Assembly: GCA_963678065.2 (NCBI GenBank)
Contig: CAXXVZ010000005.1
Span: 64,001 to 128,000 of the forward strand
DNA: 64,000 nt
DNA from: Treponemataceae bacterium
GTDB lineage: Bacteria > Spirochaetota > Spirochaetia > Treponematales > Rectinemataceae
Direction: 5' to 3'
The number at the start of each line of letters is the position of its first letter. Position 1 is the stretch's first letter. The notes under the pieces are model-generated. The model was not told the DNA's origin. It worked only from the letters and a program-made list of their open reading frames with translations, and did no database searches. Shown in pieces: positions 27,430 through 43,908 of this stretch. The translations under genes were made by a program, and so were the position numbers.

Positions 27430-27545
27430 GCAATCCCGCCTGAAAGAAGGTCTTATGGCCAAGACTATGCGCGGCCGCCGATCATGGCAAGTGGCCGCGC
27501 GGTATCCTTGCACAAAAATCAGGGACTGTGCTACAGTCCGGAAAC

Positions 27546-27730
27546 CGATGGAGGAGCGATTCCCATCAGTACCCACGGGGAGGGATTCAGGATCCCGGAG
27601 AAGCGTGGGGAAAGGGGAGAATCGCCGAAGGGCCCGGGCATTCCTGCCCCCGAGCCTTGGACGTCCGGGTCAATACCCGGCGGCTGTCGCGGAACATCCT
27701 TGCGAAGGAGTCCGCGGAGCGCCTGAGGCT
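27546..27730 (+). ncRNA. Lysine riboswitch (L-box)
   Basis: Conserved elements in order: GAGGAGCG, AGTA, GAAAGG, CGCCGAA, TTGG, AATA, CTGTC, GGAGCGC; upstream of lysC. P1 pairing looks weak. Confidence 0.85.
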
Positions 27731-27989
27731 AGGTCTCTTCGCCCCCGCCCTTCTCTCCCGGAGGGTGTCGGAAGCTACCTATCCACGGCCTCTTTCGGAT
27801 TGGAGGCATACCGTGTGTAGCTTTCGATCCGTGGGGACCGGTAGAATCTCGCCAGAGTTCTACCCGACTACCACAAGTTATCCCGCAACTGTCCCACCCC
27901 CTTCCCGCCCCGCTTTTCCCGCGTCCGGCATGCCCACCCACAGCCTCGATTCCTCCACATCATCCAGACAGAAAGGAAAGGAGTGAGCC

Positions 27990-29336
27990 ATGTCCCCCCT
28001 CGTCATGAAATTCGGCGGCACCTCGGTAGGCGACGCCTCGCGCATCGAACAGGTCGGAACGATAGTGCGCGCCAACACCAATGGCGGCGTCCTCGTCGTC
28101 GTCTCTGCGATGGGAGGCGTGACCAACATGCTGTTCGACGCGGCCAGAACAGCTCTCGCAGGCGAGATAACTCGCTCCCTCGAGATGCGCGACGCCATCC
28201 GGGAACGTCATTACGCGGCCGCCCGTACGCTCGGCACAGGACTCACTGACAGTCTGGCCGCGACCATCACGGCCATCACCGACGAACTCGGCACCTATCT
28301 CCAGGGTATCGGCCTTCTGCGCGAGCTTTCGGAGCGCAGCATGGACACTGTCGCGTCAATCGGAGAGCGGCTTTCGGGCATCCTCGTCGCGCACGGCCTC
28401 GGCGTCCCCTGCGTCGACGCCCGTCTCGTCATGCGCACGGATTCCCGCTTCGGGCAGGCGAGGCCGCAGCCGGAGACCATCCGCGAACTCGCCACGCGCC
28501 ACTTCGCACCCCTCCTCGGCGCGGGGAAAATCCTCGTAACCCAAGGCTACATCGGATCGGATGGCTCCGGCACAACGACGACCCTCGGACGCGGCGGATC
28601 CGACTACTCCGCCAGCCTCTTCGGGGCGGCGCTGGACGCGGCCGAAATCCAGATTTGGACCGACGTCGAGGGAGTCCTCACCTGCGACCCGCGCGTCGTG
28701 CCGCAGGCCCATCCTGTCGAGATACTCGGCTATGAGGAGGCGGCGGAACTCGCGGCATACGGCGCCAAGGTTCTCCATCCGGCCACCATCAAACCCGCTG
28801 TGGAGGCAGGCATCCCGGTCACTGTGCGCAACACGATGCTTCCCGAAGGCCGCTACACGACGATCAGGGCTGGTGCCTCGAGCGGGCTGCCCGTCACGGC
28901 CCTCGCCGTCCGAAAAGGCATCGCCATCATCAATCTCCGCCAGGAGACCATGATGGACCAGTCAGGCTTCCTGACCCAGCTCTTTGATGTGTTCGGCTCG
29001 CGCGGCACGAGCGTCGACCTCGTTTCCACCTCGGAGGTCTGTGTCTCCGTCACAGTCGACATGGGCGCGCCCCTTGACCTCCTCGAGAAAGATCTGTCGG
29101 CTCTCGGCTCGGTGGAGATCGCGAGGGACAGGGCCGTCGTCGCCCTTGTCGGGGAGCGCCTGCGCCAGACTCCGGCCGTCCTCGCGACCGCTTTCACGGC
29201 CCTGGGCGACATCGGCGTCGAGATGATTTCCATGGGCGCCAACGAGATCAACCTGAGCCTCGTCATGAAGTCGGACAATTCGGGAGAGGCGCTCCGCAGG
29301 CTCCACGCGGCCTTCTTCGAGGGAGGGAAGGAATGA
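27990..29336 (+). CDS. lysC: Aspartate kinase
   Basis: MKFGGTSV, VVVSAM, TLGRGGSDYSA and IWTDVEG; ACT domains. Confidence 0.95.
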   Translation: MSPLVMKFGGTSVGDASRIEQVGTIVRANTNGGVLVVVSAMGGVTNMLFDAARTALAGEITRSLEMRDAIRERHYAAARTLGTGLTDSLAATITAITDELGTYLQGIGLLRELSERSMDTVASIGERLSGILVAHGLGVPCVDARLVMRTDSRFGQARPQPETIRELATRHFAPLLGAGKILVTQGYIGSDGSGTTTTLGRGGSDYSASLFGAALDAAEIQIWTDVEGVLTCDPRVVPQAHPVEILGYEEAAELAAYGAKVLHPATIKPAVEAGIPVTVRNTMLPEGRYTTIRAGASSGLPVTALAVRKGIAIINLRQETMMDQSGFLTQLFDVFGSRGTSVDLVSTSEVCVSVTVDMGAPLDLLEKDLSALGSVEIARDRAVVALVGERLRQTPAVLATAFTALGDIGVEMISMGANEINLSLVMKSDNSGEALRRLHAAFFEGGKE

Positions 29337-30184
29337 AAATAGGCATATTCGGACGCGGCAAGCTCGGAAGAGCCGTCGCGTCGCAGATAGAATCTGCGGC
29401 GGAGATCGAGGCCGTGGCGGCAGCCGCGAAGGCCCGCCTTTCTGCGGTATCGGCTGCATCGCATGCCCCGGCCGGAATTACGACCGAAACGGAGACGGCC
29501 GACATCCCCGTCCTCGAGTGGATCATCGACCAGGGCGAGGAACCGGGAGGGCCAGTCGATGTCGCCCTGGACGCGAGCGCGGCGGGGGCCGTCAGGTCGC
29601 ACCTCGAGTGGGCCCTCGCGACGGGCACGAACCTCGTCATCGGGACGACGGGCTGGAAGATCGACGGGCTCGCAGGGCTCGTCGGGGACAGGATCGGCCT
29701 CCTCGTCTCCCCCAACTTCAGCCTGGGCGTCGCCCTGACCAAACGGCTGGCGCGGGCCCTCGGCGAATACGCGGCGATCACCCCCGACGCCGATCTCGCC
29801 GTGATCGAGAAACACCACAGCCGCAAGGCCGACGCGCCGAGCGGCACGGCGAAGGCCCTCATCTCGGCTCTGCAGGAGGGATGCCCCCGCATGGACGGCT
29901 ACCTCCTCGGCCAGGCTGCGCCCGGCAAAATCTCCGTCGGTGTCGTGCGCGCCGGCTATGAGGTCGGCTACCACGAAGTCCTCCTCGACTCGGAGTACGA
30001 GACCATCTCGATAATCCACCAGGCTCGCGGACGCGAAGTATTCGCGCGCGGCGCCCTCAGGGCTCTCCTGTGGATGAAGGGCCGGAAAGGATTCTACGAC
30101 ATCGACGACCTCGCGGCCGATCTCCTCGGTCCCGGACCGGCGGACGGCAACCTGCACTCGCGACGACATGAAAAGGGAGACTGA
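29333..30184 (+). CDS. dapB: 4-hydroxy-tetrahydrodipicolinate reductase
   Basis: VIGTTGW, SPNFSLG and EKHHSRKADAPSGTA. Confidence 0.92.
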   Translation: MKIGIFGRGKLGRAVASQIESAAEIEAVAAAAKARLSAVSAASHAPAGITTETETADIPVLEWIIDQGEEPGGPVDVALDASAAGAVRSHLEWALATGTNLVIGTTGWKIDGLAGLVGDRIGLLVSPNFSLGVALTKRLARALGEYAAITPDADLAVIEKHHSRKADAPSGTAKALISALQEGCPRMDGYLLGQAAPGKISVGVVRAGYEVGYHEVLLDSEYETISIIHQARGREVFARGALRALLWMKGRKGFYDIDDLAADLLGPGPADGNLHSRRHEKGD

Positions 30185-30185
30185 C

Positions 30186-31106
30186 ATGGCAAGCGCATCG
30201 TTCATCCAGGGATTGGGAATCGCGATCGCGACCCCCTTCACCGCCTCGGGCGAAGTCGACTACCGGGCCTTCCGGAGCCTCGTCGACCACACGACGGGAG
30301 CGGTCGATTTTTCAGGCGAGTCCGGCGGGGTCGATTTCCTCGTCGTCCTCGGATCCACGGGCGAGGCGGCGACCATCCTCGACGCCGAACGCAGGAAGCT
30401 CATCGAGACAGCCCGTGAAGCTGCAGGGACAGTGCCGATCATCGTCGGGACGGGGACAAACGCGACTGCCCGCACTGTCGAACTTACGAAAGAAGCCGTA
30501 GCGGAGGGGGCGGGCGGCGTCCTCGTCGTGACGCCATTCTACAACAAGCCGACAGCAGAGGGGCTCGTGGCGCATTTTTCGGCGGCGGCCGAAGCCGCGG
30601 GAGGCGCCCCCGTCGTCGCCTACAACGTGCCCGGGAGAACCGGGCTCAACATGACGCCCGCCATCATGAATCGCCTCTGGAAGATCCCCGGGGTCGATGC
30701 CCTGAAAGAATCCTCGGGCAACCTGGCCCAGATCGGCGAGATCCTCCGGACCATGCCGGAAGGGAAGGTCCTTCTTTCAGGCGACGACGCTCTCGCCCTC
30801 CCGGCCATCGCCCTCGGCGCGGAAGGCCTCATCAGCGTTGTCGGCAATATCCTGCCGAAGAGGATGAAGGCCATGGTCGACGCGGCTCGCGCCGGCCGCA
30901 GGGCGGAGGCGGCCGCGCTGCACGCGGCACTGCTCCCCTACATGGACGCCCTTTTCCTGGAATCCAACCCCATCCCGCTCAAGACAGCCCTCGAGATAGC
31001 CGGCATCTGCGGCGGGGAACTCAGATTGCCACTCACCCGCCCCTGTGCCGCGACACGCGCGCGGCTCGAGGAACTCTTCGCTCCCCTCTTCCGGAGGCAA
31101 ACATGA
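30186..31106 (+). CDS. dapA: 4-hydroxy-tetrahydrodipicolinate synthase
   Basis: LGSTGE, TPFYNKP, YNVPGRTG, LKESSG and ESNPIP. Confidence 0.95.
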   Translation: MASASFIQGLGIAIATPFTASGEVDYRAFRSLVDHTTGAVDFSGESGGVDFLVVLGSTGEAATILDAERRKLIETAREAAGTVPIIVGTGTNATARTVELTKEAVAEGAGGVLVVTPFYNKPTAEGLVAHFSAAAEAAGGAPVVAYNVPGRTGLNMTPAIMNRLWKIPGVDALKESSGNLAQIGEILRTMPEGKVLLSGDDALALPAIALGAEGLISVVGNILPKRMKAMVDAARAGRRAEAAALHAALLPYMDALFLESNPIPLKTALEIAGICGGELRLPLTRPCAATRARLEELFAPLFRRQT

Positions 31107-31936
31107 ATTCTTCCGATTTCACAACGACAGTCGCCCGACTGGAAGCTTTTTACGCCCGGGACTTTGAAGCTATCCTCGCAGATCCTGACTGGGTGGAAAC
31201 ACATGAGGCCCTGCTCGAAGCCCTGGAGTCGGGTATACTCGCGACCGTAGCGCAGGCCGGGGACGGAAACTGGAGCGCGGTCTCATGGGTAAAGAAGGCC
31301 ATATTGGCCGGCTTCAGGCGCGGCGGCATAGCCGAGCACGCCTGGCCGGGCGGCGCCTTCGACCGGCCGGCCTTCCCTCCCCGCTGGTTCGACGCGGAGG
31401 ACGCCGTGAGGCTCGTGCCGGGCGGAAGTTCGGCCAGGCGCGGTGCCTACATCGCGCCTGGCGTCGTCGTCATGCCGCCTTCCTATATCAATGTGGGGGC
31501 CTGGATCGGGAGAGGCACCATGGTAGACAGCCACGTCCTCGTCGGCTCCTGCGCCCATGTCGGCGAGAAAGTCCACCTCTCGGCGGGCGTCCAGGTTGGC
31601 GGCGTTCTGGAGCCTCCCCAGGCATGTCCCGTCGTCGTCGAGGACGGCGCCTTCATCGGCGCGCTGTGCGGACTCTTCGAGGGCGTCGTCGTGCGCGAGC
31701 GCGCGGTCCTCGCGCCCGGCGTCATTCTGACCGCGGGAACCCGGATCTTCGACCTCGTCGGCGGACGGGAGCTGAGGGGAGAGGTGCCGGCCGGAGCCGT
31801 CGTCGTGACCGGAAGCCGCCCCGCTTCGGGAGACTTCGCGCGCCAGGCGGGGATATCCCTCAATGTGCCCTGTATCGTAAAATACCGGGATTCGAAGACG
31901 GACGCTGCCGTCGTCCTGGAAGAAGCGCTGCGCTAG
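31103..31936 (+). CDS. dapD: Tetrahydrodipicolinate N-succinyltransferase
   Basis: WVKKAIL, PSYINVGA, VGSCA and GGVLEPPQA; hexapeptide repeats. Confidence 0.92.
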   Translation: MNSSDFTTTVARLEAFYARDFEAILADPDWVETHEALLEALESGILATVAQAGDGNWSAVSWVKKAILAGFRRGGIAEHAWPGGAFDRPAFPPRWFDAEDAVRLVPGGSSARRGAYIAPGVVVMPPSYINVGAWIGRGTMVDSHVLVGSCAHVGEKVHLSAGVQVGGVLEPPQACPVVVEDGAFIGALCGLFEGVVVRERAVLAPGVILTAGTRIFDLVGGRELRGEVPAGAVVVTGSRPASGDFARQAGISLNVPCIVKYRDSKTDAAVVLEEALR

Positions 31937-32827: not shown

Positions 32828-33676
32828 TCAGGGGACGCCGCCATTCCGGTATTTTACCTGCGCCGTTCCCGCCGCATACCCATAGAGGGCGACGTAGTAT
32901 GTCGGATCAGGCGTGGAAAATACTTTGGATTTCTGGCCAAGCGAAGACGAAGTCTCATTCCCGACGAATACGCCGCTCGTGTCGAAGACATAGAGGTCCA
33001 GGTCGCCGGAAATGCGGTTGATGAAGAAGGTCGTCGTCCCGAGCGCTGCCGGCACCTTGTACCATTTCTCGCCGCGCAGCCCGAGACTCGCGGTGGACGA
33101 CCAGATGTTTTCCGTGCCCGTGAGATCTTCGACCAGGACGGGGATGCAATTCACCGTCGCGTATGAAGTGCTCCCGCCAGTTATCGTAATGCCGGAATTC
33201 CAGCCAATCGTCACGGGGTCGGAGCCATTGGCGTTGTTGTAGATCGATACCTTGAGCCAGTCGTAGCCGCCTGCGGGAATCTCCGAGATGCTCACGACGC
33301 CGAGGGTCGAACTCGTATTTATGGAAGTGGCGGGATAGCTCCAGGCCGAGAATGCCAAATTCGAACCCTTGTACAGTTCAAAGAGAACTTTGTCGGCCCG
33401 CACCCATGCCTTTGACGCGGCATCAACCGCTCCGGTCCGCTTCTGTGCCGCCTCGAGGGTCGACGGGGCCGCTATCTCGGGAGGTATACCCTCAGGCAGA
33501 GTGACGATTCCCCTCGAAGAACTGAGGGGTTCCAGGCTGACGGCGAGACTCCCCTTCGTCGAGGGATCGATGATGATAGTGCAGCCAGCGCTCACAAGCG
33601 CCACAGCAGCCATGGCTGCGAGGAGAAGGACCGGGCGTACATGACGGCGCGCCCTTGATTCCGAAACGGTTTTCAT
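32828..33676 (-). CDS. Hypothetical lipoprotein
   Basis: Signal peptide ending in SAGC; beta-rich, with a PPC-like 'GDLDLYVF' C-terminus. Confidence 0.7.
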   Translation of the reverse strand: MKTVSESRARRHVRPVLLLAAMAAVALVSAGCTIIIDPSTKGSLAVSLEPLSSSRGIVTLPEGIPPEIAAPSTLEAAQKRTGAVDAASKAWVRADKVLFELYKGSNLAFSAWSYPATSINTSSTLGVVSISEIPAGGYDWLKVSIYNNANGSDPVTIGWNSGITITGGSTSYATVNCIPVLVEDLTGTENIWSSTASLGLRGEKWYKVPAALGTTTFFINRISGDLDLYVFDTSGVFVGNETSSSLGQKSKVFSTPDPTYYVALYGYAAGTAQVKYRNGGVP

Positions 33677-33826
33677 CGCGGTGAACTCCCTTGTCGTATG
33701 CTTCACTACAATATACCGCCATTTCCCGGACTTTTCAGTTCAGACTCGGGTCGGGCCCCAGCGCGACAGGCCGTGGCGCCGCAAGCTCAAGGCGTAGCTG
33801 TGACACAGCGAGCGTGAGCGCAGGCT

Positions 33827-34621
33827 TTAGGCGTAGCTGTGAAGTCCCGAGAGGAGGAAGTTCACGCCGAAGAAGGTGAAGACCGTGCACAAAAAACCGA
33901 TGACGGAAACCCAGGCGGGGAGCAGTCCGGTCTTTCGCTTGATGAAGCGGATGTGCAGATAGAAGGTGTAGATGAGCCAGGTGACGAGGGCCCAGGTTTC
34001 CTTCGGATCCCAGGACCACCAGACTCCCCAGGCCTGCTCGGCCCAGATGGCGCCGAAGACCAGGGCCCCCGCCGTGAAGATCGGGAAACCGACAGCGATG
34101 GCCGTGTAGGTTATGCGATCGAAATCGGGGCGCTTCCTTTCATCCCGCGTGAAGATATAGGCCAGGGAGGCGACGAACCCGGCCACGAAGAAGGCCTCTC
34201 CGACAAAGGAGAGCGCCACGTGGGCGACGAGCCAGCCGGAGCGCAGAGCGGGGATCGGCGCGAGGAGATCCTTGGGAGCGAGAGGTGAGCTCGCGACAGC
34301 GAGGAGAACGAGGGCGACGACAGTCGCGCCGAACTGCACGAAGGGCAGGAAAATAAAGCGCTTCTGTGTCCGGTAAGCGAATCCCATCAGGCAGACGAAA
34401 CCCGAATAGAAGACCAGGGACTCGAATGTGCCGGTCAGGGCGGGGAATCCGATCCTGAACGAGCGGTCGGCGATGACGGCAGCGAGAAGCGCGGCAGCGC
34501 CGAGTAGGAGAAAACGGGATGCAGGCTCTCTCTCCCCTCCTTCCTTGCGGAAGAGGAATACCGCCTGGACTGCGGCAGAGGCGAGTATCAGCAGGATTGC
34601 GATGGTCGGCAGGCTGTTCAT
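33827..34621 (-). CDS. ccsA: Cytochrome c biogenesis protein CcsA/ResC (system II)
   Basis: GAIWAEQAWGVWWSWDPKETW (WWD domain) and C-terminal GLHSYA. Confidence 0.95.
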   Translation of the reverse strand: MNSLPTIAILLILASAAVQAVFLFRKEGGEREPASRFLLLGAAALLAAVIADRSFRIGFPALTGTFESLVFYSGFVCLMGFAYRTQKRFIFLPFVQFGATVVALVLLAVASSPLAPKDLLAPIPALRSGWLVAHVALSFVGEAFFVAGFVASLAYIFTRDERKRPDFDRITYTAIAVGFPIFTAGALVFGAIWAEQAWGVWWSWDPKETWALVTWLIYTFYLHIRFIKRKTGLLPAWVSVIGFLCTVFTFFGVNFLLSGLHSYA

Positions 34622-35553
34622 GGCTTCATGTCTCCGAGTTTCTGGATGAAGGTGAGAAAGAGTCCCACCACGACGAAGATGAGGGCGGCGAGAATGACAG
34701 GATACCCGGGATCGACGACGGCGTGGAGGCCGGTGATATCCGAGTCTTTCATCCCGGAGATGAGGAAGGGCCCGGCCCTGTCTCCGGCAGCGACGCGGAG
34801 GACATCGGTCTTTTCGCCCGATTTGAGGCGGATCACGGCCTTTCCCTTTCCGTCGTCGGCGGCCATGAAGTAGAGACTGGAGCCTCCGTCGGAGAACTCA
34901 CCGCCCTGGTCGAGCAGATGCTCCTTCCCGGCGGAATCCGCGACCGAGAGGGCGCGCTTCGCGCTATGCGAGAACTGGTAGAGGCTCATGGTGCCGAGCT
35001 TCAGGGGATGGTTGACGCGGATGGCGTAGCCTTCCTTCTCGATCTTCCCGTCCTTCATGACGCTCACGGTGGAAGTCCAATCCTTGGGCCGCCCGTCGTC
35101 GTAGGTCTCGTAGCTGAAGTCCGTCAACTCGAGGACGCGTGACTCGGGCATCTCGACCTTGTCGCCGACGGAGAGGCTCACCGACCCTTCCTGTTTGCCG
35201 GAGAAAGAGACGACGGAGCCGATCACGAGGATCATGAGGCCGAGGTGGAGAATGTCGGGACCGTGCCTGCGTCGACCTTTTTTCCGCAATTCGCGTAAAA
35301 GCCTGTCGATGGTGCAGACAGAGAGGTTGACGAAGAAGGCAAGGACCGGAATCAGGAAGAGGATCGAGGTGAAAAAGCGGGAAAATCCCGTCTGCACGAT
35401 GAGTTCGCCGAGGAGCCTTCCGTACTTTGCGGTGTAGGCCCCGGCATCCAGTCCCTGGGGAATGAGGGTCGCGAGGATTCCTGTCAAGGCGAGCCAGGCG
35501 ATGAGGAAGACAGCGAGCTTCATCGATTTGAGGGATTTGAAGAGTCGTTCCAC
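34618..35553 (-). CDS. resB: Cytochrome c biogenesis protein ResB/CcsB
   Basis: SMKLAV, TLIPQ, NLSVCT, LHLG, VNHPL and DPGYPV; GTG start assumed. Confidence 0.88.
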   Translation of the reverse strand: MERLFKSLKSMKLAVFLIAWLALTGILATLIPQGLDAGAYTAKYGRLLGELIVQTGFSRFFTSILFLIPVLAFFVNLSVCTIDRLLRELRKKGRRRHGPDILHLGLMILVIGSVVSFSGKQEGSVSLSVGDKVEMPESRVLELTDFSYETYDDGRPKDWTSTVSVMKDGKIEKEGYAIRVNHPLKLGTMSLYQFSHSAKRALSVADSAGKEHLLDQGGEFSDGGSSLYFMAADDGKGKAVIRLKSGEKTDVLRVAAGDRAGPFLISGMKDSDITGLHAVVDPGYPVILAALIFVVVGLFLTFIQKLGDMKP

Positions 35554-35667
35554 GGATTTCCGCCTTGAGGAATCGAGAGATCGTCGGTGCAAAAATGATA
35601 GTCGCCGCCTCATGGACCTGTCAACAACAATTCGATGATAAAGATAGAATTTTATCAACATATCGAG

Positions 35668-35696
35668 TTTACAATATTATATCACGGGTGTATGAT
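35668..35696 (+). promoter_or_regulatory. Sigma70-type promoter of the cytochrome operon
   Basis: TTTACA-N17-TATGAT; inverted repeat TGATAAA-N8-TTTATCA just upstream (35636-35657). Confidence 0.65.
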
Positions 35697-35728
35697 TCAG
35701 ATATAAATCTATACAAAGGAGGTATGCC

Positions 35729-36946
35729 ATGAAACGGATGACTGCGCTTGCAGTCTTCGCGCTCGCGGGTCTGGCGGCTTACGCCGCCGAATCGACCTGC
35801 GTCACCTGCCACACAGACAGCGAGACCATGAAATCGCTCTTCGTGCCGCCGGCGATGAGCGCGTCCGAAGGCGAGGGCTGAGCGGGAACTCCTCCCCCGG
35901 TCCGGGCGGATGAACTTTACCTGGGATTCGTCGTCGACAAGTCCCTTCTGGAAACCGATCCACATCTCAAAAATGACTGCACGTTCTGCCACAAAGGCGA
36001 CCCGACGGCTTCCGACAGGAGCCTCGCGCACGCGGGCGTGAACAAGCGTCCCTCCGACGACCTTGCGACCTGCGGGACATGTCACGAGGAGACAGTCAAA
36101 ACCTACAAACTCTCCCTCCACTACACGACAGCGGGCATGAAGAGCGGGGTGAATCCCCGGTTCTCCGGCGCGGAAGCCTCGGTCTACGATCAGAAGGTCT
36201 TCGAGCAGTCCTGTCGCTCCTGCCACGCGTCATGCGGCGACTGTCACGTCAAGAGCCCCACCATCTCCGGCGTCGATCTCGGTCTCATGGCCGGACACAA
36301 ATTTGTAAAGAAAGACGAGTCGAAGACCTGCGCGCTCTGCCACGGCGGACGCGTCTACCCCGAGTTCACGGGCGAATACGGCGGCAACGCCGATGTCCAC
36401 TACCAAAAAGGCATGTCCTGCACGGACTGCCACTCAGAGTCCGAAATTCATGCCAGCTCCGGAGCACAGAGCGACAGGCGCGCCGTTTCCGACAAGCCGT
36501 CCTGCGTGAAGTGCCACGCTCCCGGGACGGAGAAGACCGAAAAGGCGAGAACCGCGCACGCCGACCACGGCGATATGGTCTCCTGTTCCGCCTGCCACAG
36601 CTCGGCGGAGTACCGCGGCTGTGCATCCTGCCATCTCGGCGAAGGCGCTACATCGAGCCCCATGTTCATGCTCGGCGACAATCCGAGGAAACCCGGCCAG
36701 CTCACCACGCTGCGCCTCGTTCCCACGGTCCGCGACACGTTCAAGAAGGTCGGTATCGTCCAGGAAAACTTCGATTCGATGCCCAATCTCTGGGATACCG
36801 TTCCGCACAACACGCGCAAGCGCACCGAGCGCACGCGCGACTGCTCTGTCTGCCACTCGGAGAAGCGGAACGTCCTCACCGAGGAAACGCTCCCGAAGGG
36901 CGGATCCGAGGCCAACAAGAAACTCATTTTCGAGTTCATGTATTGA
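35729..36946 (+). CDS. Secreted 11-heme c-type cytochrome, predicted selenoprotein (Sec51), 405 aa
   Basis: AAGGAGG RBS, signal peptide, CVTCH, then in-frame TGA at 35879-35881 after GEG. The same frame continues without stops into ORF 36038..36946; 11 CxxCH motifs in total. Confidence 0.88.
35882..35912 (+). promoter_or_regulatory. Candidate bacterial SECIS hairpin
   Basis: TCCTCCCCCGGTCCGGGCGGA can fold with a small G-containing apical loop about 17-20 nt after the TGA. Confidence 0.6.
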
Positions 36947-36965
36947 ATTTTCAAGGAGAAAAACG

Positions 36966-37844
36966 ATGAAGAAGCTGTTTGCCATCCTCGTGCTCGCCGC
37001 CTGCCTCGCGCCGGCTGCCTTCGCAAGAGACATCGATCCCGTAGTCTCGGCCGCGTGGCTGGAGTCCAACCTCGCCAACCCCAACCTCGTCGTCATGGAC
37101 GTCCGCTCGGTGGAGAACTACAAGGCCGGCCACATTCCCGGCGCCGTCAATGTCATAGGGGCCAGTCTCTATGTGAAGAAGGGCGAGATCAACAACGAGG
37201 TGCCCGAGATGGATGAGCTCTCGGATACCCTCTCCGCGGCCGGAGTCAAGGCCGACTCCTGGATCGTCGTCGTCGAAACCGACGGCTCCCGCCTCGCCTG
37301 GTCCACGCGCGTCGCCTGGACTCTGAAATACGTCGGGATCGAGAACGTCGCCTTCCTCGACGGCGGCTACGCGGCCTGGACCAAGGCCGCCAAGCCCGTC
37401 TCCAAGGACGCGGTCACGAAGTCAGGCGGCTACACCGCCAAGGCGGTTCCCGCCTACTTCGCGGACAAGGCCCAGGTCCTTGCGGCAAAAGACGCTCAGA
37501 TCGTCGATGCGCGCACCTACGATACCTACTTCGGACTCGTCAGGCAGTCCTTCGTCGCTCAGGCCGGACACTTCCCCGGCGCGTATTCTCTCCCCTACAC
37601 CTGGATCCTCAACGCCGACAACATGGTCAAGTCCAAGGCCGACCTGGCCGCCTACGCCGCGAAGCTCGGACTCGACCCCTCCATCGAGACCATCGTCTAC
37701 TGCGACTCGGGCGTCCTGTGCACCGCCTGGTGGTATGCCTTCTCCGAGATACTCGGCTGGAAGAATGTCAGGAGCTTCGACGGATCCTCCCAGGTTCTCA
37801 CCGCCGATCCATCAGTCAAGTATGTGGCTCTGACCTGGCGCTGA
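36966..37844 (+). CDS. Secreted tandem-domain rhodanese/sulfurtransferase; may extend to 37928 by TGA read-through
   Basis: Signal peptide, GHIPGA, LDGGY, VDART, GHFPGA and active-site YCDSG. Confidence 0.92.
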   Translation: MKKLFAILVLAACLAPAAFARDIDPVVSAAWLESNLANPNLVVMDVRSVENYKAGHIPGAVNVIGASLYVKKGEINNEVPEMDELSDTLSAAGVKADSWIVVVETDGSRLAWSTRVAWTLKYVGIENVAFLDGGYAAWTKAAKPVSKDAVTKSGGYTAKAVPAYFADKAQVLAAKDAQIVDARTYDTYFGLVRQSFVAQAGHFPGAYSLPYTWILNADNMVKSKADLAAYAAKLGLDPSIETIVYCDSGVLCTAWWYAFSEILGWKNVRSFDGSSQVLTADPSVKYVALTWR

Positions 37845-37928
37845 GCCCGGACGGCGACGGTCCGGTACTGCTACTCCTGTCATCACGCCGAGACCCTCGT
37901 CAACTGCAACAAGTGCCACAAGGAGTGA
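37845..37928 (+). other. In-frame 27-codon two-heme segment ARTATVRYCYSCHHAETLVNCNKCHKE
   Basis: Two CxxCH motifs directly after the rhodanese TGA; no ATG or RBS of its own. Confidence 0.7.
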
Positions 37929-37988
37929 GGCGGCCGGGCACTGCGGAGGACTAAAAACTCCAAAGGCTCTGTCACAGAGACGATTGTC

Positions 37989-38022
37989 GATGAGGGGCCG
38001 GCCGCAAAGCCGGCCCCTCATC
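37989..38022 (+). terminator. 14-bp perfect hairpin closing the cytochrome-rhodanese unit
   Basis: GATGAGGGGCCGGC/GCCGGCCCCTCATC; no T-tract. Confidence 0.55.
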
Positions 38023-38063
38023 ATCGAGGCCATTCCGGTCTTGGCCATCCCGGACAGGAAAGC

Positions 38064-38093
38064 TTGACCCCGCATCCGGAGTGCGGCTAGTAT
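38064..38093 (+). promoter_or_regulatory. Putative promoter of selCAB
   Basis: TTGACC-N18-TAGTAT, 7 nt before the tRNA. Confidence 0.55.
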
Positions 38094-38100
38094 CGCCTGC

Positions 38101-38189
38101 GGAAGCAGACGGGGTCTGGTGGCTCCCGCGGTCTTCAAAACCGTTGGCCGCGCCTTGCGCGGCGGCAGGTCCGATTCCTGCCTCTTCCG
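38101..38189 (+). tRNA. selC: tRNA-Sec (UCA)
   Basis: GGAAG 5' end, 6-bp D-stem with 4-nt loop, anticodon loop CTTCAAA, long variable arm, T-arm GCAGG-TCCGATT-CCTGC; adjacent to selA. Confidence 0.95.
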
Positions 38190-38223
38190 ATCACCATGAC
38201 CGGCACCCGCCGAGGCAGAAAGC

Positions 38224-39672
38224 ATGACAGAACCATCCAGAGATATCCGTTTGCCCCAGATCGGCAGGATTCTCGAGAATCCGGATATCGCCGCGTTTTT
38301 TCCCCTCATCTCGCGTCCTTTGACCGCAAAGTCGGTGGCCGAAACGGTGGCGCGCATCCGCGCCTCAGCCCTGGCAGGCTCCGTTTCAGTCTCCGATACC
38401 GAAGTCATCGGACGCTGCGTCGACGACTGCCGCGCCCTCGCATCCAGACGACTCAGGCCTGTGCTCAACGCGACGGGCATCCTCCTTCACACGAACCTCG
38501 GCCGTTCGCCTTTGAGCGAGGGCGCGTGGGAGAAAGCCCGGCGGATAAATACAGGCTACTCGAACCTCGAGTTCGACCTCGGGGCGGGAGAACGGGGAAG
38601 GCGCGGGGGTCTCGCGCCTGAATTGGCCGCCCTTCTTTCGGGAGCCGAATCCGCCCTCATCGTCAACAACAACGCGGCCGCAGTGCTCCTCGCGCTCGGA
38701 ACTCTCGCCGCGGGTCGCGAAGTCATCGTCTCACGAGGGGAGCAGGTTCAGATCGGCGGCGGGTTCCGCATCCCGGAGATCCTCGCCCTGTCCGGCGCGA
38801 AACTCGTCGAGGTGGGAACGACGAATGTCACCACGGTCGACGACTACCTTCAGGCCCTCGGGCCGGAGACTGCCGCCGTCCTCGTGGTTCACAGCTCCAA
38901 CTTCGCGATCCGCGGATTCACCAGGAAGGCGGCGCTCGCCGACTTGGTCGGGGCGCTCCCCTCCCGCGTTCCCGTCATCGCCGATCAGGGATCGGGATGC
39001 ACCACAGAGCGCATCGAAGGCGAGATCCCGGTTTCGCGGTACATCGCGGACGGAGCAGCCCTCGTCTGTTTTTCCGGGGACAAGCTCGCGGGCGGACCCC
39101 AGGCGGGCATAATCGCGGGCCGCAGCGACCTCGTCGCGGCCTGCGCGCGTCATCCGCTCATGCGGGCGTTCCGACCCGGGAAAACCATCCTGTCGCTTCT
39201 GGAGCAGAGACTCGTCGAGATTCTCTCCGGAGTTCCCGCTCCGGCTTCGCCGCGGGATGCGGCCGGGCTCGAGACCTTCGGCGCGGCGATCCTCGCCGGA
39301 TTGCCAGGGGGAACGGCGCGCCTCGTCCCCTCTGTCGCGTCCACGGGAGGCGGAACGAGTCCGGACGAAGGATTTCCTTCGCGCGCGCTCGAACTGCTTC
39401 CACCGCTCGCCGCGCAGCGCCTTCTCGAAGCATTCCGGCAGGGCGATCCACCGCTCGTCGCGTGCGTGCGTGCGGGAAAGATTCGGCTCGACCTCGCGTC
39501 GCTGCGCGGCGAAGACCCGCGGCTCGTCGCACAGCTCATCATGGAGGCCCTCGCCTCCTGCGACAGCGATGCCCCATCGGGGAAGCGCGCCGACTCCGCC
39601 TGTTTCGACGTCTGTCATTCTTCTCCGCTCAGGGTTGGCGGCCCGGCGTCGGGTCCGGTCACAGGAGACTGA
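38224..39672 (+). CDS. selA: L-seryl-tRNA(Sec) selenium transferase
   Basis: VLNATGILLHTNLGRSPL, YSNLEFDL, VNNNAAAV, IGGGFRIP, EVGTTN and FSGDKL.GGPQAG. Confidence 0.95.
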   Translation: MTEPSRDIRLPQIGRILENPDIAAFFPLISRPLTAKSVAETVARIRASALAGSVSVSDTEVIGRCVDDCRALASRRLRPVLNATGILLHTNLGRSPLSEGAWEKARRINTGYSNLEFDLGAGERGRRGGLAPELAALLSGAESALIVNNNAAAVLLALGTLAAGREVIVSRGEQVQIGGGFRIPEILALSGAKLVEVGTTNVTTVDDYLQALGPETAAVLVVHSSNFAIRGFTRKAALADLVGALPSRVPVIADQGSGCTTERIEGEIPVSRYIADGAALVCFSGDKLAGGPQAGIIAGRSDLVAACARHPLMRAFRPGKTILSLLEQRLVEILSGVPAPASPRDAAGLETFGAAILAGLPGGTARLVPSVASTGGGTSPDEGFPSRALELLPPLAAQRLLEAFRQGDPPLVACVRAGKIRLDLASLRGEDPRLVAQLIMEALASCDSDAPSGKRADSACFDVCHSSPLRVGGPASGPVTGD

Positions 39673-39676
39673 GAGG

Positions 39677-41290
39677 ATGCCTGTCGTCGGGACGAGCGGC
39701 CATGTGGATCACGGCAAGACGACCCTCATCGCAGCCCTGACCGGCGTCGACACAGACCGCTTGCCCGAGGAAAAAGCCCGCGGCATGACCACGGATCTCG
39801 GTTTCGCCCATTTTGCAGACTCGCAGGGCAATCCCGTCGGCATCATCGATGTGCCGGGCCACGAACGGTACATGCGCAACATGTCCGCCGGAGCTTTCGG
39901 CATCGATGGCGCCATCCTCGTCGTCGCCGCGAACGACGGCTGGATGGAACAGACGGGGCGACATCTCCAGATTCTCGAGGCTAACAAGGTTCCAATCCTC
40001 GCTGTCGCCCTGACGAAGGTCGACCTCGTCGCTCCCGACCGCGTGAAGGAAGTCGGCGAGGATATCGCGCGCAGGTTGCATCGTTCGCCCTCGGGGTCGA
40101 TTCCGGGTCCTGCGCAGCCCTCACCGGCGGGAGTAGAGAAGGAACTGCGGCGCCCGGCCGTATGTCCGGTCGACGCCGTGCGTGGCCTGGGTCTCGATGA
40201 ACTGAAATCAGCCGTTCTCGGCGGTCTCTCCCGTCTCGGGCCGCGCCCTTTCCCGACGGGTCCCTTGCTCTTCATCGACCGGGTCTTCCCGCTGAAGGGG
40301 ATTGGCGTTGTCGTCGCGGGGAGTCTTCGGGGCGGTCAGCTGAGGCAGGACGATGAACTCTTCCTCTATCCCTCCGGAGAGAAGCTGAACCTGCGGGGCC
40401 TTCAGGCATACGGACTGCCGGTCAGAGAGGCGCCCGAAGGCTCGCGGGTCGCGCTGGCCCTCTCGCGCCCCCGCGCGGAACCGCGCCGGGGTGACTGCGT
40501 CGCTTCCGCAAAGGCCGGCATCGTGGCAGCGCACTCCGTCTTCTTGCGGACCCGCCCTCCTCAAGGCGAGATGCCGGGTGCCGGCCGCCTGCGCGCCGGC
40601 ATGGAAGTCGAACTGTCAGCGGGCACCGCGAACAGGATCGCGACACTCTACCCATCGCGCGTTCCCGGCGTCCTCCATCTCGCGTGGACAGGAGAGCTCG
40701 CGCTGTACCGCGATGAGACTGTCATCGTATTGCGACATGGAGGCGCCGATATTCTCGCCTCGGGAAACATCGCGGCATTCGGAGGCGACTCGGCTCCCGG
40801 ACGTCGCCGGATCGAAGAGGAGCTGAGACAGAGCCTTCTGCCAACCTCTCCAGAGCTCTCTGTTCCGGCAAAGGGCACGAAGCTGTCCCCGGCAAGGCCT
40901 CTCCAGCGGGAGGTCCCTCCCCTCGCCCCATCGGCCCTCCAGGTACTCGGGCAGCTTCGCTCGGCCGGGGAACCGGGCATCGACGCTGAGACACGGCCTG
41001 TGCCCGGACTTCGCGCGGATCTTTCGGCGCTCTGCGCGCAAAACCTTGCCCTGAGCCTCGATGCGGGCCTGTTCATGGAAACTGGCCGCTACCACATCCT
41101 GACGGCGGCCATCCTCAGAGGGCGCGGGCCAGGCAGCGGCTTCGGCATCAAGGAAGCGAAAGACGCCACCTCGCTGTCGAGAAAATGGATCATTCCGCTC
41201 CTCAATCGCATGGAGAGGGACGGCTATGTCAAACGCGCGGGCGACACGAGAATCGTGACCGGGAAAGCGCCAGGACCTGAATCGGCCTGA
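39677..41290 (+). CDS. selB: Selenocysteine-specific elongation factor
   Basis: GHVDHGKT, TDRLPEEKARGMTTDLGF, DVPGHERY, TKVD and C-terminal winged helix SRKWIIPLL. Confidence 0.93.
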   Translation: MPVVGTSGHVDHGKTTLIAALTGVDTDRLPEEKARGMTTDLGFAHFADSQGNPVGIIDVPGHERYMRNMSAGAFGIDGAILVVAANDGWMEQTGRHLQILEANKVPILAVALTKVDLVAPDRVKEVGEDIARRLHRSPSGSIPGPAQPSPAGVEKELRRPAVCPVDAVRGLGLDELKSAVLGGLSRLGPRPFPTGPLLFIDRVFPLKGIGVVVAGSLRGGQLRQDDELFLYPSGEKLNLRGLQAYGLPVREAPEGSRVALALSRPRAEPRRGDCVASAKAGIVAAHSVFLRTRPPQGEMPGAGRLRAGMEVELSAGTANRIATLYPSRVPGVLHLAWTGELALYRDETVIVLRHGGADILASGNIAAFGGDSAPGRRRIEEELRQSLLPTSPELSVPAKGTKLSPARPLQREVPPLAPSALQVLGQLRSAGEPGIDAETRPVPGLRADLSALCAQNLALSLDAGLFMETGRYHILTAAILRGRGPGSGFGIKEAKDATSLSRKWIIPLLNRMERDGYVKRAGDTRIVTGKAPGPESA

Positions 41291-41432
41291 AGTCGACAAC
41301 CTCGCGGCGAACTGCGGAGGTATGAAACCCGTCTGCGAATGAACAACATGTCCAGGCCCTGATTGTCGCGCCGGAGCGCGATATTGTCTCGTTCAGATCG
41401 GGGAATCGGTTTCCATATAGCAGGGAGAAAAA

Positions 41433-41837
41433 ATGAAAAGCATGAAATTTTTGCCAGGCCTCATCGCGGTCGCGTTCATCTCCGCAGGTTTCCCGGGATG
41501 CGCGAAACTCGCGGAGATGAAGGCGATGACGGACAGCATCGGCACTCTCACCATCGGTCGCGTCGATGTTGCGGCTGTGCGGGACGGCGACTACGAAGGG
41601 TCTCAGGACAATGGAGCCGTGACAGCCAGAGTGGCCGTCACGGTGCGGGGAGGAAAAATCACGGCGATAAAGGTGCTGGATCACAGGCACGGGCCGGGAA
41701 AAAACCACGACGCCGGAGCCATATCCGACAAGGTCGTGGCGGAACAGAGTCTTCAGGTCGACGCGATCGCCGGGGCCACCGCCTCGAGCAAAGTAGTGCT
41801 CAAGGCCATCGAAAACGCGCTGACGAAAGGCATATAG
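41433..41837 (+). CDS. FMN-binding domain lipoprotein
   Basis: Signal ending in PGC; DGDYEG, VTVRGGKI, and VDAIAGAT resembling the flavinylation motif. Confidence 0.85.
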   Translation: MKSMKFLPGLIAVAFISAGFPGCAKLAEMKAMTDSIGTLTIGRVDVAAVRDGDYEGSQDNGAVTARVAVTVRGGKITAIKVLDHRHGPGKNHDAGAISDKVVAEQSLQVDAIAGATASSKVVLKAIENALTKGI

Positions 41838-41973: not shown

Positions 41974-43908
41974 TTACTTTAGGACCGATCTGGCCACCCT
42001 GAATCCGATAGTCCGGTCGTTGTTGAGCGGATTGTGATAGTTGCGGAAGGGGACGCGGGCGAAATCGGGCAGACGGTTCCATCCTCCTCCCCTCTTGACT
42101 CTCATGGTTCCGCTTGCCGGTCCCTTGGGATCCACCAGCGGTTTCCCTGTCAACGCAGGATAGATTCCATACCAGTCGTGACACCATTCCCACACATTCC
42201 CCGTCATGTCGAAGAGTCCGAGCCCATTGGCGGCCCTTGTGCCGACAGGCTTGGTTCCGCCGCCGGAATTCCGTGAGTTCCAGGACACAGCGTCGGCATC
42301 GTCCGAGCCTGAATACTTCAGCACGACAGAGCCGGGAAGAGTGCCGATCAGCCCGCCCCGTGCGGCGAATTCCCATTCGGCCTCGGTGGGCAGGCGGTAG
42401 CCGGGTTTGGAAAAATCGGCGGCGACGGTGGTCCCGGACACCGAGTAGACCCGCGGCAGGCCCGCGAGATCCGAGAGCGCGTTGCAGTAGCCGACGGCGT
42501 TGAACCAGCTCACCTGCTCCACAGGTCTGGAATCCGCCTCGATGCCATTCTTGAAGAAGCTCGGGTTGGACCCCATGATGCTCCTGTATTGGGCCTGCGT
42601 AACTTCGTTCCTGCCGATGTAGAACGCAAGGAGCGTCACGGGATGAACTGGCTTTTCGTCGGATTCGCCTGAGGCGGAACCCATGTTGAAAGTGCCCCCC
42701 TGGACCAACACCATTTCAGGAGTATCGACGAAGGTGTAGGAGACGACCGTGGCCGGGGAATCCTTCCAGCCCGGCTTGCCCGCGATAGCTGTTATCGTGA
42801 CCGAGCCCTTTGCCTGGAAGGGCGACGAGTACAGGTTCCCCCGCGAGGACGAGGGGAGGCTGCCGTCCATGGTATAGCGGATCACCGCTCCCGGAGTGGC
42901 ACAGGACATCGACACGGTGCGGTCAGGCGTATATGTCCCCGCGGCCGGCGAGACAAGGGGGGACGCGACCGTCCCCGTGATGACGAACTCTCCGACGGCG
43001 ACGGACGATATCCGGGAATCGGCCCCGACAGCGACCGCTTTGACGGTTTTCGTGCTTTCGATCCTGAAAGGAGCGGAGTAAACCGTCCCGGTTCCAGCCC
43101 CCGGTTCGCTCCCGTCAGTCGTGTAGCGGATACCCACAACGTCAGAGGCGGCTGCGAGGCTCACCGTGACAGCTTCCTGGAAGGTACCCGGCTCCGGGCT
43201 GAAGCGGGGAAGTGATGGAGGGAGGGCCACCGGCATCCCGGCCACCGGAGAGGCCGGAGCGGCAGCTGTCGCCGGATTCCGGGATGCCTGGACTTCCGCC
43301 TCGTCGTCGAAATTCTTCGACGAAACGCTCGATTCTTTCCATCCCGATCTGAAGGCTATGGCCTTCATGGTCATCCCCTTCTTCACGATCGCGGGTATCC
43401 CGGCGTACTCCATCCCGTAGACGGGGGTCGGTTCCGATCCGTCCAGCGTGTATCGGATCCTGGCTTCAGGTGTCGCGGTGCTGAGCTTCACCATGGTCGT
43501 ACCCGCCGGGGGAGTCGCATCCAGAGACTTTTCGATGCCCGGGGCCGCCACGGTTCCCGTGACGACATAGGTCGCGCTGACAATGTCGCTGGGCTTGCCG
43601 GAGGCGGGGACTGCGATGGCCCTGATAGTCTGGGATTTGTTCACGGGAATCGGCTTCATGTAGGTCTGGCTCTTCGTGCCTTCCTGGGCCGATGGCTCGC
43701 TGCCGTCCACGGTGTAGTAAATTTTTGCCGCCGGATCGGCGGGAAGCAGCTCGACCTTCTGCGGGCTGGTGTACGTTCCGTTTGCGGGCTTGAAGGAAAC
43801 GGCGGGAGGGGCGTCCTTCCCTCCCTTCGCCGTCGCGCAGCCCGCGAGCAGGGCGGCGAGGGCCAGGATAGCTATAAAAGAAAGAGTGGTATTCTTGCGA
43901 TGCGTCAT
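41974..43908 (-). CDS. Lipoprotein with four Fn3-like/CHB_HEX_C repeats and a C-terminal FGE-sulfatase (SUMF1) domain
   Basis: LAGC lipobox; 4x 'I.YT.DGS.P'; RLPTEAEWEFAARGG, GLFDMTGNVWEW, RGGGW and GFRVAR. Confidence 0.88.
   Translation of the reverse strand: MTHRKNTTLSFIAILALAALLAGCATAKGGKDAPPAVSFKPANGTYTSPQKVELLPADPAAKIYYTVDGSEPSAQEGTKSQTYMKPIPVNKSQTIRAIAVPASGKPSDIVSATYVVTGTVAAPGIEKSLDATPPAGTTMVKLSTATPEARIRYTLDGSEPTPVYGMEYAGIPAIVKKGMTMKAIAFRSGWKESSVSSKNFDDEAEVQASRNPATAAAPASPVAGMPVALPPSLPRFSPEPGTFQEAVTVSLAAASDVVGIRYTTDGSEPGAGTGTVYSAPFRIESTKTVKAVAVGADSRISSVAVGEFVITGTVASPLVSPAAGTYTPDRTVSMSCATPGAVIRYTMDGSLPSSSRGNLYSSPFQAKGSVTITAIAGKPGWKDSPATVVSYTFVDTPEMVLVQGGTFNMGSASGESDEKPVHPVTLLAFYIGRNEVTQAQYRSIMGSNPSFFKNGIEADSRPVEQVSWFNAVGYCNALSDLAGLPRVYSVSGTTVAADFSKPGYRLPTEAEWEFAARGGLIGTLPGSVVLKYSGSDDADAVSWNSRNSGGGTKPVGTRAANGLGLFDMTGNVWEWCHDWYGIYPALTGKPLVDPKGPASGTMRVKRGGGWNRLPDFARVPFRNYHNPLNNDRTIGFRVARSVLK

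Follow-up and report, generated by a model that had tools for sequence, protein, structure and literature searches.

A predicted selenocysteine-containing eleven-heme cytochrome c and its rhodanese partner in a spirochaete

Only one multiheme selenoenzyme was found characterised in the literature, namely MccSep of Geobacter sulfurreducens (ExtKL, GSU2937-2936), which was described in 2026 as a polysulfide reductase carrying selenocysteine (Sec) beside a heme (PMC13510729, the source of all statements on MccSep made here). Its mobile Sec attacks polysulfide next to the heme, and the enzyme reduces selenite as well (PMC13510729). Among the 119 families in Table 1 of a 2026 review, the selenoproteins of heme type comprise only ExtKL, GSU2204 and a Sec-bearing member of TIGR04315 (PMC13188914). 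Here we describe an eight-gene locus at positions 33827-41837 of a 64,000-nucleotide stretch of a Treponemataceae genome (assembly GCA_963678065.2, contig CAXXVZ010000005.1, positions 64,001 to 128,000 of the contig, i.e. G000:C5:64001-128000, G000 being the source genome), which we refer to as the window. At its centre lies a gene for a predicted exported cytochrome c with eleven heme attachment motifs, in which a conserved in-frame UGA at codon 51 is very likely read as Sec, followed by a gene for a tandem-domain rhodanese. An initial annotation, made from the sequence alone, had proposed a Sec-containing exported multiheme cytochrome kept alongside a rhodanese and selCAB in a probable spirochaete; the analysis supports this proposal, and the spirochaete host is borne out by a scan of related loci and by tree placement.

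The UGA codon of the cytochrome gene

Translation of positions 35729-36946 with TGA read as Sec yields a protein with a signal-peptide-like start, one CxxCH motif, the TGA at codon 51 and ten further CxxCH motifs. Conservation of this codon was followed in three samples, which overlap and whose counts are not additive: the 12 relatives that carry the cytochrome gene among 60 sampled; 53 genomes of the host's own family with a completeness of at least 85%, 16 with and 37 without the cytochrome; and the best 80 of at least 582 related stretches in a collection holding one genome per species (the 80 loci). Codon 51 is TGA in all 12 relatives, in all 16 cytochrome-positive family genomes and in 79 of the 80 loci, the remaining locus (L110, position 6962) having CGA for arginine together with a broken pair in the hairpin stem described below. 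The corresponding codon of three distant spirochaete homologues is likewise TGA. Such conservation is far beyond chance and rules out a sequencing error at this codon.

A hairpin of six pairs begins 11 nt past the UGA. Over 74 distinct sequences 92.8% of the cells of the alignment pair, whereas with the partners slid out of register the share never exceeds 63%. Covariation is slight, amounting to one pair and two cells, and the stronger signal of the hairpin is the invariance of silent sites, as two fourfold-degenerate sites in the stem are 95% and 100% invariant whereas none of 96 further fourfold-degenerate sites exceeds 81%.

In 41 full-length distant homologues, the column of the Sec residue holds cysteine in 12 cases, tryptophan in 5 and another residue or a gap in 24. 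At least the tryptophan of P0206 is a mis-read TGA, this protein being identical to the translation of L101 in 355 of 355 downstream residues. Database annotation cuts the cytochrome gene in two, and the N-terminal heme and the Sec site are missing from 118 of the 120 closest database proteins; Sec forms are under-counted among the distant homologues because databases truncate them. Taken together, a conserved UGA, a hairpin 3' of it, cysteine-containing homologues (12 of 41) and selABCD in the same genome are what is expected of a selenoprotein, and we consider it very likely that UGA51 is decoded as Sec. The family is a real one and, as a selenoprotein family, has probably gone undescribed. 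No NCBIfam model covers the eleven-heme cytochrome, it does not appear among the 119 families of the review table (PMC13188914), and no description was found in the literature searched, most subscription journals and Table S2 of PMC13326102 lying outside that search.

The rhodanese and the diheme tail

The rhodanese gene adjoins the cytochrome gene in 12 of 12 relatives and in 67 of the 80 loci, and in the homologues P0032 and P0053 the two proteins are fused. The rhodanese comprises 292 residues with two PF00581 domains and matches thiosulfate sulfurtransferases of the PDB at E 6e-30. Its second-domain Cys246 occupies the catalytic position of the solved thiosulfate sulfurtransferases, and all relatives that align at this position retain it. 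In the distant homologues L137 and L138 a different rhodanese-like gene, identified by its motif, comes next.

The initial annotation associated two exported proteins of this locus with an in-frame TGA, and the two cases part ways: conservation argues for Sec in the cytochrome, and the comparison points to an ordinary stop in the rhodanese. If the rhodanese TGA were also read as Sec, translation would continue into 27 in-frame codons holding two CxxCH motifs and give a rhodanese-Sec-diheme fusion. Although this tail is unbroken, has coding-like codon use and is covered by contigs of three studies, it is found in none of the 12 relatives and in none of the 65 readable loci, where the stop codon of the rhodanese is mostly TAA or TAG (TAA 7 and TGA 5 among the relatives; TAA 37, TGA 15 and TAG 13 among the loci), and its position in frame has a chance of one in three anyway. 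The loop sequence GGTCCG is common to the tail site and the true hairpin, but with the hairpin geometry of the cytochrome family only 2-3 of the 6 stem pairs form at the rhodanese TGA. Furthermore, the tail matches the C-termini of intact four-heme cytochrome c3 open reading frames (ORFs) of seven relatives with 78% over 23 residues, and no other copy was found in this genome. The best reading is a recent 3' remnant of a tetraheme c3 gene that is probably not translated. Because the rhodanese TGA is by this comparison a plain stop, a second selenoprotein, which would have an unconserved UGA, a failing hairpin and no conserved downstream coding, is rejected, and we regard the fusion as quite improbable. 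The intact small tetraheme cytochromes of the seven relatives (L029-L035) carry repeated DAxS[GA]A[ST] motifs, which we take to resemble flavinylation sites.

Gene layout, Sec and heme supply, and origin

The eight contiguous genes of the initial annotation were all recovered in place by gene calls and by profile and tRNA scans, resB-ccsA running leftward and the remaining six rightward:

33827..34621, minus strand: ccsA (CcsB/ResC), system II heme lyase; PF01578 and TIGR03144 above cut-off
34618..35553, minus strand: resB (CcsB partner); PF05140; start inferred, GTG at 35553
35595..35696, no strand given: putative divergent promoter-like region with sigma-70-type matches on both strands
35729..36946, plus strand: eleven-heme cytochrome c, 405 residues, predicted signal peptide, predicted Sec51, predicted fold like octaheme tetrathionate reductase (OTR)
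35879..35881, plus strand: in-frame TGA, predicted Sec codon, EGEG-U-AG motif
35893..35910, plus strand: hairpin like a selenocysteine insertion sequence (SECIS), 6-bp stem, 6-nt loop with invariant G and U
36966..37844, plus strand: tandem-domain rhodanese, predicted exported, catalytic-position Cys246 (YCDSG); PF00581 twice
37845..37928, plus strand: 27-codon diheme tail, probably the leftover 3' end of a gene for a small tetraheme cytochrome c3
38100..38190, plus strand: selC, tRNA-Sec (UCA); ARAGORN; RF01852, 63.5 bits
38224..39672, plus strand: selA, selenocysteine synthase; TIGR00474, 425 bits, cut-off 268
39677..41290, plus strand: selB, Sec-specific elongation factor; TIGR00475, 232 bits; PF09107
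41433..41837, plus strand: lipoprotein with a flavin mononucleotide (FMN)-binding domain, FMN_bind; PF04205

The locus is real DNA, because it recurs on contigs from the runs of three studies, one contig of 12.2 kb spanning 33500-41451 with 113 differences; the same contigs rule out a misassembly or chimera at the diheme tail. In the putative promoter region 11 of 12 positions match on the minus strand and 10 of 12 on the plus strand, with 7 sites compared with 1.2 in shuffled sequences, and a further putative promoter-like site lies upstream of selC at 38064-38093. A strong G+C hairpin without a T run at 37989-38022, beyond the diheme tail, may terminate the cytochrome-rhodanese transcript. 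The score of SelB is slightly below the TIGR00475 cut-off of 242 bits, and its winged helix (PF09107) is present.

The selD gene, which lies outside the window and without which Sec could not be made, was found at C3:1583836. It is of the Cys type and belongs to a cluster (L028 8779-15007, G000:C3) with yedF, a gene of the cysteine desulfurase family, yqeB, yqeC and xdhC; because selD sits in this selenium-cofactor cluster, a second selenium trait is likely in the genome. SelD itself and a formate-dehydrogenase-like protein carry Cys, not Sec. Within the host's family, selB is present at E<=1e-45 in 14 of the 16 cytochrome-positive genomes and in 0 of the 37 cytochrome-negative ones. Natural losses point in the same direction. 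Compared with G021, genome G001 has two separate deletions, one of about 2.3 kb that removed the cytochrome and rhodanese genes and one of about 1.9 kb that removed selB; at this locus (L125 8199-11380) ccsA is kept, resB is frameshifted and selA is intact, the tRNA-Sec has decayed below the Rfam cut-off, and selD gave no match in the genome. This one cytochrome appears to be what selABC are retained for in the host's family.

Heme attachment is a different case, since resB-ccsA is the host's general cytochrome maturation machinery and not the dedicated pair initially envisaged: ccsA, a single-copy gene in this genome, occurs in 28 of 36 family genomes and the cytochrome in 10. A possible second client of ResB-CcsA is an exported 527-residue protein with one CxxCH motif and a weak match to NF041762 (L123 6409-7992, minus strand; G000:C5 near 321994). 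As hemC was not found in G000, which is 99.9% complete, nor in 14 of the 16 cytochrome-positive family genomes, heme would be scavenged. For the electron supply, Rnf, cytochrome bd, menaquinone-pathway genes and the ApbE that the initial annotation suggested looking for are present in the genome; no electron donor of the cytochrome was found, and this is the weak point of the proposed reductase. The FMN lipoprotein, which had been counted as part of the module, is a neighbour instead, as its gene is absent from the loci of all 12 relatives and from all 80 loci, and its homologues occur in 16 of the 53 family genomes, 4 of them cytochrome-positive compared with about 5 expected by chance. Despite the presence of ApbE, the lack of conserved linkage led us to reject it as the electron donor. 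In two genomes of genus g14 (L133 and L134 in G013 and G032), resB-ccsA is accompanied by small triheme proteins, an 11-heme protein of another kind and what is probably a cytochrome b; together these are candidates for the chain that supplies the Sec cytochrome of this genus with electrons. The description of the module as self-contained was thus overstated: the gene set is there, but selD lies elsewhere, hemC was not found and the FMN gene is unlinked.

The homologues do co-occur with rhodanese, sel and ccs genes. In the 12 relatives, resB-ccsA (divergent from the cytochrome gene and adjacent to it) is part of the locus in 10, selC in 11, full-length selA in 9 and selD in 6. Counts among the 80 loci, many of which are truncated, drop to 26 for resB, 23 for ccsA, 9 for selC and 7 for selA, the sel neighbours all being in spirochaetes, which indicates that the eight-gene layout is a spirochaete arrangement round a two-gene core. 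In 12-15 deltaproteobacterial loci, mostly of Syntrophales type, further genes come after the pair, encoding in turn a protein with 7-8 hemes, another rhodanese and a protein with 9 hemes (as at L112 9039-13785 and L060 9040-13720); the last has a weak cytochrome b561 match, and this 9-heme, cytochrome b-like protein is a plausible quinol link. A sulfur transporter gene lies near L065. ArsR genes are found near the cytochrome in 11 and small thioredoxin genes in 6 of the 80 loci, examples in spirochaetes being L085, L046 and roughly nine more.

Many holders of the cytochrome are syntrophs, and a 400-genome sample of the phylum yielded five matching genomes. In a quick tree of 97 rows, picked as best matches and rooted on long outgroup branches, the 30 Spirochaetota rows form one clade (SH-aLRT 93) inside deltaproteobacterial and Nitrospirota rows. 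Because the spirochaete rows form a single clade, a single ancient transfer, after which the locus was inherited and in places lost, would fit. The suggestion that the locus is possibly mobile finds no sign of present mobility, as there is no plasmid match and there are no long flanking repeats (a phage collection was outside the search), and the G+C content of 0.60-0.67 is like that of the flanks.

In the surroundings, a lysine riboswitch (RF00168) precedes apparent lysC-dapB-dapA-dapD genes, named from the translations, at 27541-31936, an ordinary arrangement. A 292-residue lipoprotein-like ORF at 32828-33706 (minus strand) has no Pfam match and is absent from the 12 and the 80 related loci, a direct repeat of 24 nt (88%) at 33780-33842 overlaps the ccsA stop, and the gene at 41974-43908 (minus strand) encodes an exported protein that combines an FGE-sulfatase domain with four Fn3/CHB_HEX_C repeats.

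Proposed reaction, rivals and comparison with known systems

How might such a cytochrome work? An alignment of 96 sequences served for conservation, for family-model searches and for an AlphaFold2 model, which has a predicted local distance difference test (pLDDT) score of 89 overall. Structural comparison of this predicted model by VIA-align ranks OTR of Shewanella oneidensis (1sp3) first with a Z of 10.0 (next 4.8) and a root mean square deviation of 4.2 over 260 residues, the match spanning residues 76-405. Single-sequence searches of the PDB with the cytochrome gave nothing informative, whereas the family profile matches 1sp3 at E 1.4e-7, with two other multihemes scoring slightly higher over short stretches. 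In this profile match hemes 3 and 4 align to the first two hemes of OTR, so that heme 4 corresponds to the second heme of OTR, which we take to be the catalytic one. The catalytic heme of OTR is ligated by lysine according to PMC13562315. The OTR family model TIGR04315 has no match in this cytochrome and weak ones in 21 of the 96 family members (best 5.7e-10); the eleven-heme family is thus predicted to have the OTR fold but fails the OTR family model. Because only nine conserved histidines outside the CxxCH motifs are available for eleven hemes, two hemes are without an obvious distal ligand. The conserved Arg144, Arg208, Arg329 and Tyr295 suggest an anion pocket.

These features lead us to propose, with moderate confidence, that cytochrome and rhodanese form the core of a molybdenum-free periplasmic reductase of S-S bonds, acting on polysulfide or on sulfane sulfur from thiosulfate or tetrathionate; that the cytochrome is an exported sulfur-reducing enzyme is likely. 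Support comes from the conservation of UGA and hairpin, the pairing and fusion with the rhodanese, the predicted OTR fold and the co-distribution of selB. Briefly, SelD from its separate locus together with SelA, SelB and tRNA-Sec would recode UGA51, and ResB-CcsA would attach the eleven hemes after export using scavenged heme. The rhodanese would load sulfane sulfur on Cys246 to form a persulfide, which could be attacked by the selenolate, held on a flexible linker between hemes 1 and 2, near a heme without distal histidine. The heme chain would then reduce the Se-S adduct and sulfide would be released, giving the host an electron sink for fermentation via a membrane electron donor. The attack by Sec51 is inferred from the analogy with MccSep, and we give about even odds to a transfer of sulfane sulfur from the rhodanese to Sec51 and its reduction by the heme chain.

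Several results weigh against this proposal. The genome holds no NrfD and no cytochrome b561 above cut-off, and the only other ORFs with at least two CxxCH motifs are the diheme tail and one of 95 codons. The Sec loop has a pLDDT of 62-69 in the predicted model, and a Foldseek search with this model gave no match at E<=0.001. No lysine column exceeds about 55% conservation in the 96 sequences, as OTR-type ligation would require, and apart from the Sec column cysteine is conserved only in the CxxCH motifs, so that a ligating cysteine of the MccSep type is missing. Sec or Cys is not universal, because the Sec column holds a residue other than Cys or Trp, or a gap, in 24 of the 41 full-length distant homologues. 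The co-occurrence of sel genes and cytochrome partly reflects physical linkage and shared ancestry; moreover, G023 has selA, selD and a split selB below threshold, and neither cytochrome nor ccsA was found in this fragmented assembly of 410 contigs. Finally, the search for other selenoproteins in G000 found no convincing one, albeit with crude and noisy genome screens.

It could also be imagined that the Sec serves selenium rather than sulfur, i.e. selenite or tellurite reduction, detoxification or selenium capture, with the clustering of selABC(D) as a sign of selenium metabolism. MccSep's activity with selenite, the reported link of the ext cluster to selenite and tellurite reduction, the inclusion of selD in the locus of 6 of the 12 relatives and the ArsR and small thioredoxin genes near 11 and 6 of the 80 loci would agree with such a role. 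The dependence on Sec by itself explains the clustering, however, the pair occurs without sel neighbours outside the spirochaetes (selA in only 7 of the 80 loci), and ExtH, ExtI and ExtKL are unmatched, so we regard this role as unlikely. Rather unlikely, if a little less so, is a pure electron-transfer or oxidative protein, with Sec as axial heme ligand or redox sensor and electrons taken from sulfide or passed to a partner cell. Two hemes without a histidine partner, the many syntrophs among the holders, the replacement of the Sec site in many distant homologues and the lack of a quinol dehydrogenase among the genes found in this genome speak for it, whereas the constant pairing or fusion with a rhodanese whose active site is intact speaks against it, the best fold match is an enzyme and not a wire, and the conserved arginines and tyrosine suggest an anion pocket. 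The predicted fold would also suit a nitrite or hydroxylamine reductase of OTR type, with the rhodanese in a separate role, and OTR is reported to use nitrite too. Yet the conserved lysine is missing, TIGR04315 is unmatched by this protein, and both the Sec and the fusion with rhodanese speak for a chemistry of chalcogens, which makes such an activity very improbable.

If the parts of the sulfur-reductase proposal are joined, the eleven-heme family would be a second class of selenium-heme sulfur reductases with an evolutionary origin of its own, with an OTR fold and a Sec arm fed directly by a partner rhodanese, hidden at 582 or more loci by truncation at the UGA. Free-living spirochaetes that are regarded as fermenters would have acquired it from deltaproteobacteria on one occasion; in them it would be the only selenoprotein and, through a membrane electron donor, would serve periplasmic sulfur respiration with scavenged heme. 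This joint reading is tentative, and we would sooner doubt than assert it as a whole. The family in any case differs from MccSep and is widespread, with at least 582 loci in the one-genome-per-species collection. If the reduction of sulfane sulfur holds true, it would constitute an unrecognised sulfur-linked electron sink in many syntrophs and free-living spirochaetes. The spirochaete locus offers a compact test system, 7.5 kb encoding the enzyme together with its carrier, the heme attachment and most of what decodes Sec, and the natural losses suggest that the Sec trait exists in these spirochaetes for this one protein.

The predicted likeness to MccSep is that of a periplasmic multiheme c-type cytochrome whose single Sec is encoded by a UGA accompanied by a SECIS; in addition, the gene cluster of MccSep contains a rhodanese, ExtH. 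The differences are considerable: MccSep has 5 CxxCH motifs instead of 11, its Sec (U325) sits in a C-terminal Ig-like domain instead of between hemes 1 and 2, its heme-ligating Cys239 has no counterpart here, and the porin, Rieske and cytochrome b genes of its system are not at this locus. NF040886 (ExtKL) has no match to the cytochrome at E<=0.1 and is not among the 25 of 45 families listed for the 96 members; the genes of the ext cluster (extHIJKLMNOPQS) are not at the locus, the scores against the cut-offs being 53 of 200 bits for ExtH, 34 of 800 for ExtM and 30 of 200 for ExtN. Homology to ExtKL, left open by the initial annotation, is therefore rejected on the missing family match, the different heme number and Sec position and the missing ligating cysteine. 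OTR, the best structural match of the predicted model, is set apart by an identity of only 17%, by three extra hemes in the present protein, including an N-terminal two-heme extension with the Sec, and by its lysine, which is not conserved in the eleven-heme family. The rhodanese resembles the tandem thiosulfate sulfurtransferases of CysA3/SseA type (PF00581) and ExtH (NF040901), with two domains and the catalytic cysteine in the second; it differs in its predicted export and its low ExtH score, and it contains no Sec, so that the listed Sec-rhodanese forms do not apply. The system II proteins ResB/CcsB-CcsA and the SelABCD proteins are ordinary members of their families, and what is unusual is their clustering round one client gene.

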